Of a stretch of DNA of 2,230 nt, positions 109 through 1,960 are shown piece by piece. The stretch comes from Escherichia coli. GTDB lineage: Bacteria; Pseudomonadota; Gammaproteobacteria; Enterobacterales; Enterobacteriaceae. The position numbers and the translations under genes are program-made. The notes beneath the pieces were generated by a model. It made no database searches. It had not been told where the DNA came from and saw nothing but the letters and a program-made list of their open reading frames with translations. How positions within the stretch are numbered: position 1 is the first letter of the stretch; each line of letters begins with the position of its first letter. The stretch lies in the NCBI RefSeq assembly GCF_003334815.1, contig NZ_QOWO01000088.1; one strand, given 5' to 3'.

Positions 109-312
109 ATGTTTGGTAACTTAGGACAGGCAAAAAAATATCTCGGCCAGGCGGCGAAGATGTTGATTGGCATTCCAGACTACGACAACTACGTCGAGCA
201 TATGAAGACCAACCATCCCGACAAGCCGTACATGAGCTATGAAGAATTCTTCCGCGAACGCCAGAACGCACGCTACGGCGGCGATGGTAAAGGCGGTATG
301 CGCTGTTGTTAA
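109..312 (+). CDS. yjiX: Small DUF466-family protein (YjiX/YbdD-like, 67 aa), the type usually encoded next to a CstA/BtsT-family transporter gene
   Basis: ATG at 109 to TAA at 310..312, 67 aa. The translation ([67 protein letters not shown]) matches the short YjiX/YbdD family as I recall it, and it sits immediately upstream of yjiA as in E. coli. The Shine-Dalgarno sequence is weak (GAGTGA). Confidence 0.85.
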
Positions 313-322
313 TGGAGAGAGC

Positions 323-1279
323 ATGAACCCGATTGCAGTTACCCTACTCACCGGTTTTTTAGGCGCGGGCAAAACCACCCTGCTGCGCCATATTCTTAAC
401 GAACAACACGGCTACAAGATTGCCGTGATTGAAAACGAATTCGGCGAAGTCTCCGTTGATGATCAACTGATTGGCGACCGCGCCACGCAGATCAAAACGC
501 TGACCAACGGCTGCATCTGCTGTTCGCGCTCCAACGAGCTGGAAGACGCACTACTCGACCTGCTGGATAATCTCGACAAGGGCAATATTCAGTTCGACCG
601 TCTGGTCATTGAATGCACCGGCATGGCCGATCCCGGCCCGATTATTCAGACCTTTTTCTCCCATGAGATTTTATGCCAGCGCTACCTGCTGGACGGCGTG
701 ATTGCGCTGGTGGATGCGGTACATGCCGATGAGCAGATGAACCAGTTCACCATCGCCCAGTCCCAGGTTGGCTACGCCGACCGTATTCTGCTGACGAAAA
801 CCGACGTCGCAGGCGAAGCAGAGAAACTGCGTGAACGCCTGGCGCGCATCAACGCCCGCGCACCGGTCTACACCGTTACCCACGGCGATATCGACCTGGG
901 CCTTCTGTTCAACACCAACGGTTTTATGCTGGAAGAAAACGTCGTCAGCACCAAACCGCGTTTCCACTTTATCACGGACAAACAAAACGATATTTCGTCG
1001 ATTGTGGTGGAACTGGATTACCCGGTAGATATCAGCGAAGTTTCCCGGGTGATGGAAAACCTGCTGCTGGAGTCGGCGGATAAACTACTGCGTTACAAAG
1101 GGATGCTATGGATTGACGGCGAACCTAACCGCCTGCTATTCCAGGGCGTCCAACGCCTCTACAGCGCCGACTGGGACCGCCCGTGGGGCGATGAAAAACC
1201 GCATAGCACGATGGTGTTTATCGGGATTCAGTTGCCGGAGGAAGAGATTCGGGCAGCGTTTGCGGGGTTGAGGAAGTAA
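323..1279 (+). CDS. yjiA: COG0523/CobW-family P-loop GTPase (G3E-type putative metal chaperone), 318 aa
   Basis: ATG at 323 preceded by GGAGA (314..318); stop TAA at 1277..1279. Walker A motif GFLGAGKTT at residues 11-19 (nt 353..379). The family-defining CxCC metal-binding motif GCICC is at residues 63-67 (nt 509..523). Length and N-terminus (MNPIAVTLLTGFLGAGKTTLLRHIL...) fit E. coli YjiA. The ORF-track start at 239 is an upstream in-frame ATG inside yjiX and is rejected in favour of 323. Confidence 0.95.
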   Translation: MNPIAVTLLTGFLGAGKTTLLRHILNEQHGYKIAVIENEFGEVSVDDQLIGDRATQIKTLTNGCICCSRSNELEDALLDLLDNLDKGNIQFDRLVIECTGMADPGPIIQTFFSHEILCQRYLLDGVIALVDAVHADEQMNQFTIAQSQVGYADRILLTKTDVAGEAEKLRERLARINARAPVYTVTHGDIDLGLLFNTNGFMLEENVVSTKPRFHFITDKQNDISSIVVELDYPVDISEVSRVMENLLLESADKLLRYKGMLWIDGEPNRLLFQGVQRLYSADWDRPWGDEKPHSTMVFIGIQLPEEEIRAAFAGLRK

Positions 1280-1290
1280 TTTTGGATGAT

Positions 1291-1321
1291 GGCCGCCATG
1301 TGGCGGCCTGAATTATTTTTT
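1291..1321 (+). terminator. Putative intrinsic terminator after yjiA: stem GGCCGCC/GGCGGCC with ATGT loop (1291..1308), then a T6 tract (1316..1321)
   Basis: Perfect 7-bp GC-rich inverted repeat seen directly, 12 nt after the yjiA stop. The T-tract is separated from the stem by 7 nt (TGAATTA), which is suboptimal. It lies in the 33-bp gap between the convergent yjiA and brnA genes. Confidence 0.45.
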
Positions 1322-1615
1322 GTTCTGATCGCGCAGCATCGCTTCACGTAAAATTGCGTTCAGGCGAGTTTGATAGCCTTTACCTGGTCGCTTCAACCAT
1401 TCCATCACATCAGCATCAATACGCACCGAAGCCTGAGTTTTCAATGGCCGATAAAACTTACCGCGTTCGGCGTTAGACCATTGCTCATCGCTGGAAGGTG
1501 GGATATCACTGTAATCAATATCTTCGTCGGATTTATTCGCCAGCGCCTTCAGTTCGGCCTCATGCTGCACATCGAGTGTAGAGGAGGTCCCTCGTTTATG
1601 TTTAACCATGCTCAT
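1313..1615 (-). CDS. brnA: BrnA-family antitoxin (DUF4415, ribbon-helix-helix-type DNA-binding C-terminus), 100 aa
   Basis: ATG at 1615..1613 preceded by a strong Shine-Dalgarno sequence (AAGAGAGGA, 6 nt upstream on the minus strand); stop TAA at 1315..1313. The translation (MSMVKHKRGTSSTLDVQHEAELKALANKSDEDIDYSDIPPSSDEQWSNAERGKFYRPLKTQASVRIDADVMEWLKRPGKGYQTRLNAILREAMLRDQNKK) has the acidic D/E-rich middle and the GKGYQTR-N-LRE C-terminal signature I associate with BrnA. The 29-aa N-terminal extension in the ORF track (start 1702) is out-of-frame read-through across the brnT 3' end and is rejected. Confidence 0.8.
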   Translation of the reverse strand: MSMVKHKRGTSSTLDVQHEAELKALANKSDEDIDYSDIPPSSDEQWSNAERGKFYRPLKTQASVRIDADVMEWLKRPGKGYQTRLNAILREAMLRDQNKK

Positions 1616-1878
1616 AGCGATTCCTCTCTTTACGATCTGCTTTTCGTGCACTGATGATTCGAATAATTTCATTTCCGCTTTCGAAACGGATGGTATGCGC
1701 AACCAGAATAACCACGATGCCGTAATGTCTGCCAGCGATACTCACCGTTTTCTATGCGTTCTTGCTGTGACAAATGTTGTGGATCATCAAACAATAACAC
1801 CGCATCTTCAAAGCGGATGCCATGTTTCACCCGATTACTTTTGGCCTTGTTTTCATCCCATTCAAACTCCATTGGCAT
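1602..1878 (-). pseudogene. brnT: BrnT-family toxin (DUF497, RelE-like fold ribonuclease toxin) disrupted by an apparent +1 frameshift near 1722
   Basis: The N-terminal half (MPMEFEWDENKAKSNRVKHGIRFEDAVLLFDDPQHLSQQERIENGEYRWQTL) reads in the frame of the 1669..1905 ORF. The conserved C-terminal half (GIVVILVAHTIRFESGNEIIRIISARKADRKERNRYEHG, stop TAA at 1604..1602) is in a different frame that has no start codon. Removing one base around 1722 (minus-strand ACATTA-C-GGCATC) would join them into one 91-aa ORF of typical BrnT size. The reconstructed 3' end overlaps the brnA start by 14 nt, the usual toxin-first brnTA layout. The start is ambiguous: ATG at 1878 (preferred, with GGGATGG 5 nt upstream), 1887 or 1872. 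Confidence 0.6.
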
Positions 1879-1905: not shown

Positions 1906-1960
1906 AAATGTATCTACAATTATTCTGCAATTATAGCGTTGATGTTGGAAATAGCATCAC
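1906..1960 (-). promoter_or_regulatory. Candidate brnTA promoter region: consensus -10 TATAAT on the minus strand (1935..1930) with a poor -35; direct repeat CAATTAT at 1917..1923 and 1928..1934
   Basis: Hexamer and repeats read directly. The -35 match is weak (ATGCTA at 16-bp spacing). An alternative pair, TTGTAG/TACAAT, overlaps the palindrome at 15-bp spacing. Promoter assignment is tentative. Confidence 0.2.

Follow-up and report, generated by a model that had tools for sequence, protein, structure and literature searches.

The window, by which is meant the whole stretch of 2,230 bp of E. coli chromosome analysed here, carries a brnT/brnA toxin-antitoxin locus on its minus strand, convergent with the yjiA gene on its plus strand and lying between the ends of two insertion sequences. 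Its genes and features, apart from the subdivisions of brnT, are as follows.

1-77: terminal end of IS150 (IS3 family), with ...CAGTACA as its last bases, at 77
109-312, plus strand: yjiX
323-1279, plus strand: yjiA, GTPase gene
1291-1308: GC-rich hairpin terminator, GGCCGCC ATGT GGCGGCC and then a T-run; the yjiA terminator, between convergent yjiA and brnA
1313-1615, minus strand: brnA, intact, 100 aa; matches Pfam PF14384 (BrnA_antitoxin) over positions 1-68 of 68, E = 3.1e-17
1602-1878, minus strand: brnT pseudogene, 277 nt (the ancestral gene has 288 nt and encodes 95 aa)
1623-1628, minus strand: brnA Shine-Dalgarno sequence GAGAGG, 7 nt before the ATG, read from the sequence
1891-1922: inverted repeat of 14 nt, TAATTGTATATACA / TGTATCTACAATTA, with a 4-nt spacer; 93% complementary (repeat search)
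1930-1935, minus strand: perfect TATAAT -10 hexamer upstream of brnT, read by eye; putative promoter
~2062-2230: end of IS1, 184 bp upstream of the brnT start

The brnT gene of the window is broken by a small deletion. The intact allele used as the reference is that of strain Eco889 (L002 3313-3600), which translates to a single 95-aa protein labelled by PGAP as “BrnT family toxin.” Aligned with this allele, brnT in the window is 100% identical on both sides of one 11-bp gap, and the gap divides the gene into the following parts.

1725|1726 (1725..1726), minus strand: deletion junction, coding strand ...CAGACA|TTACGG..., missing ATCGGCCTGGT
1726-1878, minus strand: 5' part of brnT in the native frame, codons 1-51 (M1 to T51), from translation
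1669-1725, minus strand: out-of-frame tail of 18 aberrant codons plus TGA at 1669-1671, from the ORF list and translation
1602-1724, minus strand: remaining 3' part of brnT, still in its ancestral frame (Y56 to G95, then the stop); identical to the intact allele

The deleted ATCGGCCTGGT comprises codons I52, G53 and L54 and two bases of V55, and a check of the junction for microhomology, a repeat or a homopolymer found none there. The ORF at 1669-1878 (minus strand) encodes a product of 69 aa, with residues 1-51 native (MPMEF...EYRWQT) and the last 18 out of frame (LRHRGYSGCAYHPFRKRK). The C-terminal half (YGIVVILVAHT...RNRYEHG) lies in a different frame, which closes at the stop codon 1602-1604, and translation that begins at the brnT start no longer gets to it. 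The initial annotation, made from the letters alone, had recognised this switch of frame, and the translations bear it out, with the two halves in different minus-strand frames; it had also judged that the switch was no coincidence, which agrees with the perfect identity of both flanks to the intact allele. Its position for the switch, near 1722, gives way to 1725|1726 in the alignment. The N-terminal half had been read as ending in ...EYRWQTL, which is correct as far as T51, the L being the first aberrant residue. The proposed removal of one base does give a 91-aa ORF arithmetically, but the ancestral protein has 95 aa. The expected 69-aa product from the start at 1878, lacking the C-terminal core, is what the ORF and the domain searches below show, and the full-length brnA ORF and its Shine-Dalgarno sequence are present as described. 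The lesion is not new to the databases. In all the carriers inspected, RefSeq/PGAP labels the identical sequence “BrnT family toxin, frameshifted,” such that the pseudogene is already known from public annotation and is a case of ordinary decay.

What is left of the toxin? The reconstructed 95-aa BrnT matches the Pfam BrnT_toxin model (PF04365) over positions 1-77 of 77 (E = 4.7e-24); with the 69-aa product the match is confined to positions 1-47 of 77 (E = 2.1e-12). The window therefore encodes no complete PF04365 domain, and more than a third of the domain is missing from its toxin product. An NCBIfam search with BrnT, BrnA and fragments of them gave no hits; PGAP evidently takes its names from models of the Pfam type. 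In a search of the PDB, the reconstructed protein aligns with Brucella abortus BrnT (3u97, E = 1.6e-4). The Brucella protein is a RelE-like ribonuclease with a four-stranded beta-sheet as its framework, and Asp6, Glu7, Lys9, Arg41 and Glu78 matter for its RNase activity (PMC5086665). The 3u97 alignment pairs these residues with D8, E9, K11, R48 and E88 of the E. coli protein. Thus, the ancestral allele has all five, as in Brucella. The product of the window keeps D8, E9, K11 and R48 and lacks E88, which lies past the frameshift and goes untranslated. From its sequence, we strongly infer that the toxin of the window is dead. A 69-aa fragment with four of the five RNase residues might in principle retain binding to BrnA or RNA.

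The likeness to known systems extends from the toxin to the operon. The Brucella and E. coli pairs belong to the same Pfam families (PF04365 and PF14384) and have the same gene order, toxin before antitoxin. Their toxins are distant in sequence, as the E value above indicates, and the window copy, unlike Brucella BrnT, is cut after residue 51 and appears from its sequence to be a dead copy. A closer structural relative is chain A of PDB entry 7VD7, a 94-aa protein named “toxin.” This chain aligns end to end with the reconstructed 95-aa BrnT (E = 4e-52), which indicates that the ancestral brnT encodes one folded protein. Unlike the window copy, 7VD7 is intact; it comes from another organism or allele and differs by many substitutions. 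A literature search found no paper describing 7VD7.

Where brnT is intact, the locus is a bicistronic BrnT/BrnA operon: the toxin gene comes first, the reading frames overlap and the adjacent gene encodes a protein with a BrnA_antitoxin domain. For example, the brnT stop of Eco889 lies 14 nt inside brnA (L002 3313-3600 and 3024-3326). The premature stop in the window, at 1669-1671, is 53 nt upstream of the brnA ATG (1613-1615), meaning that the 14-nt overlap is lost, together with any translational coupling. Further upstream, the inverted repeat at 1891-1922 lies between the TATAAT box and the brnT start. In Brucella, BrnT binds BrnA in a 2:2 complex, which acts as a repressor of its own promoter (PMC5086665), and the position of the E. 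coli repeat fits this reported autoregulation; by analogy, the repeat is likely to be an operator for BrnA or BrnTA. No good -35 element was found upstream of the brnT TATAAT, and a sigma-70 consensus scan requiring both hexamers called no minus-strand promoter upstream of brnT. Both the putative operator and the putative promoter of brnT/brnA are unannotated.

How widespread is the deletion, and is it inherited? A 40-bp query centred on the junction, and unable to seed on the intact allele, was searched against 5,426 complete E. coli genomes. The exact junction is present at 100% identity in 24 of them, so the same lesion, which the initial annotation had suggested looking for in other isolates, does occur there. 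The window's own source genome, with its private IS150, is not among the 24. The carriers come from humans, pigs, a dog, cattle, frogs and water, from several continents and from many laboratories. All 24 are of one local haplotype: they are at least 99.9% identical to positions 78-2230 of the window, and the next-best genomes differ from the window by essentially only the 11 bp. Comparison of 10-kb flanks in nine carriers and four toxin-intact relatives places the deletion on one haplotype. Across the 9.1-kb right flank (mdtM-iadA), the nine sampled carriers differ from one another by three SNPs or fewer, and from the toxin-intact genomes by at least 84. The left flank is also common to the sampled carriers, with the exception of EC6622. 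A shared junction on one haplotype indicates a single historical event that has since been inherited, and not an assembly error. The deletion lineage, with 0-5 SNPs over 2 kb, is young. Close relatives have an intact orthologue at this position, and independent assemblies show one and the same lesion on one haplotype; brnT in the window is therefore very probably a genuine inherited pseudogene.

Some of the carriers differ in other ways near the locus. In EC6622 (L007, 5701-10000), the tsr-btsT flank is ~100 SNPs from that of the other carriers and the right flank is identical; this genome looks like a recombinant with a breakpoint close to the locus. ISKpn26, inserted in lgoR in the other sampled carriers, is absent from that gene in EC6622. 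Frameshifts are annotated in yjiH in four assemblies (L008, L011, L012 and L015, ~20862-21541) and in yjiG in another (L014, ~21542-22002). These could be real lineage markers or long-read homopolymer errors.

The antitoxin gene has fared better than the toxin gene. BrnA in the window is WP_000063156.1, a protein also found in strains with an intact toxin, and 2,111 of the 2,113 matching genomes have a full-length brnA sequence. The window and seven of the nine sampled carriers retain an intact brnA ORF. The other two, QDFD216 and 50EVAW (L012 and L015, 11236-11538), have a nonsense mutation, E31* (GAA to TAA), and one of the nine, ST12468 (L013), has the missense change N86H. PGAP calls a shorter, 68-aa “BrnA” from an internal start in QDFD216 and 50EVAW. 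No disrupted brnA was found among the sampled toxin-intact genomes. Loss of an antitoxin should be tolerable only if the toxin is inactive, and E31* thus argues that the toxin is dead; the tolerance of brnA knock-outs in deletion carriers supports the same conclusion drawn above from the missing part of the domain. The nonsense allele also suggests that brnA is not strongly needed in these carriers, and argues against strong selection for an orphan BrnA.

The 11-bp deletion is not the only way in which brnT has been lost. The brnT/brnA locus is present in 2,113 of the 5,426 complete genomes, and junction-specific searches identify two further classes of deletion in it. In class a, found in 222 genomes (for example L003 and L004, ~1826-1942), an internal deletion of ~160 bp leaves ~33 codons of brnT, terminating in an ATGA overlap with the brnA start. 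In class b, found in 109 genomes (for example L005 and L006, ~1813-1965), a deletion of ~300 bp has taken out brnT codons 1 to ~75 together with the -10 box and the operator. Both classes are independent of the 11-bp deletion and of each other, and the brnA ORF is kept in all four genomes sampled from them. Altogether, 355 of ~2,112 locus-bearing genomes (17%) are without a working toxin gene (24 + 222 + 109), and ~1,757 have a contiguous brnT. That the toxin is lost and brnA is kept follows from the logic of addiction, because the antitoxin cannot go first. The locus is a textbook case of toxin-first decay of a chromosomal toxin-antitoxin module.

Other readings of the frameshift itself can be set against this one. 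When a small gene is frameshifted in a single assembly, an artefact is often to blame, and the initial annotation had offered, as one of two options, a single-base indel error in an otherwise intact gene. The frameshifts in nearby yjiH and yjiG in some carrier assemblies, which are possibly errors, would be in keeping with such a fault in base calling or consensus building. Nevertheless, an artefact is very improbable here. The lesion is 11 bp long and lies outside any homopolymer; the identical junction recurs in the 24 complete assemblies, made in different laboratories and on different platforms; the flanks of the nine sampled assemblies are of one haplotype, which sets them apart from the toxin-intact genomes; and secondary brnA mutations have arisen within the carrier group. 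The other option, a toxin inactivated with the antitoxin ORF left in place, is the one that stands, by way of an 11-bp frameshift beside a BrnA identical to that of toxin-intact strains. It might instead be supposed that the two frames are meant to be separate, either joined by a programmed +1 ribosomal frameshift or expressed as a naturally split toxin. A +1 shift would indeed rejoin the frames, and there is a UUU-CGA site downstream in the aberrant frame. This reading is barely credible: the toxin is a single contiguous protein in the ~1,757 genomes with an uninterrupted gene, in the PDB homologue 7vd7 and in the Pfam model, which spans the whole, so the halves are not naturally separate genes, as the initial annotation had allowed they might be. 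The change of frame was made by a lineage-specific deletion, there is no recognised shift motif at the junction (ACA|TTA CGG), and homologues are single-frame. Moreover, a rejoined product would still be missing or garbled at residues 52-68, and brnA nonsense alleles are tolerated in the deletion background.

The alternatives that accept an inherited deletion concern the antitoxin, and propose that orphan BrnA is kept by selection, either because it neutralises BrnT from incoming plasmids or phages (anti-addiction) or because it serves as a transcription factor. There is evidence that could be read in this way. The window has an intact brnA ORF, as do sampled genomes of all three independent deletion classes, which together number 355 genomes; brnA is full length in nearly every genome that matches it; and orphan antitoxins are reported to be abundant in E. 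coli (PMC10790755). The same asymmetry is expected without any new function, however, given that brnA is not losable while the toxin is active. Because the deletion lineage is young, intact brnA within it carries little information, and two of the nine sampled carriers have in any case acquired a nonsense mutation in brnA and one a missense mutation. Class b genomes have lost the -10 box and the operator, such that their brnA is probably without its native promoter. Anti-addiction in particular gains little from the distribution of plasmids with BrnT homologues (n = 605), among which enterobacterial plasmids with a close homologue are rare: 556 are from Acinetobacter, with ~55-60% identity, and ~6 are from Escherichia, Klebsiella or Citrobacter. 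Selection for the orphan is thus unlikely. Equally doubtful is the broader proposal that toxin loss, repeated three times with BrnA retained, was itself adaptive at this locus on the yjiA edge of a variable region rich in restriction and defence genes, with BrnA serving in anti-addiction or anti-defence against incoming BrnT-bearing elements, or as a regulator.

The preferred reading is neutral, toxin-first decay, and the events leading to the window may be pictured as follows. The starting point was an ancestral type II toxin-antitoxin operon in which a single 11-bp deletion, in one E. coli sublineage, shifted the frame of brnT. Transcription probably starts downstream of the TATAAT at 1930-1935. 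Ribosomes on the pseudogene would stop at 1669-1671, yielding the 69-aa peptide with its 51 native and 18 aberrant residues, and BrnA would be made from its own Shine-Dalgarno sequence, probably repressing the operon via the upstream inverted repeat. BrnA would then be left without a toxin to neutralise, and brnA itself is starting to decay in some carriers. The state seen in the window is most readily taken as an intermediate in the neutral decay of a selfish chromosomal module, and as neither an artefact of sequencing nor a regulated feature. There is precedent for such a course. Chromosomal toxin-antitoxin systems of E. coli are known to decay by deletion and nonsense mutation, for example ccdO157 (Mine et al. 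2009; PMC7167474), and the accepted reading of such decay in E. coli is that of a neutral, selfish module (PMC7167474). As with ccdO157, the position of the brnT/brnA locus is conserved, some lineages have an inactivated toxin, and the antitoxin survives longer than the toxin; unlike ccdO157, the family is BrnTA rather than CcdAB. A literature search on BrnT, E. coli and pseudogenes found no published decay at the present locus, which appears in database annotation only.

What are the implications? For annotation, brnT in the window should be recorded as a pseudogene with an 11-bp deletion and brnA as an orphan antitoxin. At the level of the population, the locus offers a clean and countable instance of toxin-first decay, with three independent brnT deletions in 355 of ~2,112 genomes, and with antitoxin knock-outs only in sampled genomes that carry the toxin-dead 11-bp deletion allele. 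It could be used as a small teaching or benchmark case for the evolution of toxin-antitoxin systems. Beyond correct annotation its significance is small, and no current view is challenged.

Several observations concern the surroundings of the operon, which adjoins yjiA at the margin of a variable chromosomal region in E. coli. At the yjiA end, the T-tract of the terminator hairpin at 1291-1308 overlaps the region of the brnA stop codon. The IS150 sits within the loop of the btsT terminator hairpin, immediately upstream of yjiX, and all close relatives in the complete-genome set have a normal btsT 3' end at this site; the insertion looks private to the source genome of the window. The best hit to the IS150 edge of the window is in EcPF16, but it was rejected as a match, the IS150 there being at an unrelated site. 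As a result of the IS150 insertion, the yjiX-yjiA-brnA-brnT segment is flanked by IS150 and IS1 in the window. All 24 deletion carriers have the IS1 at this same site, and so do many toxin-intact genomes, among them SE15 and Eco889 (ST131-type). In most of the sampled genomes mdtM follows directly after IS1; SCU-172 (L001) is arranged differently beyond it. In other strains, the neighbours of brnT are a restriction endonuclease gene with type I restriction-modification genes, or Fic with GmrSD. The presence of defence genes beside brnT in those strains indicates that the locus borders a variable defence-gene region, which is deleted in the window.
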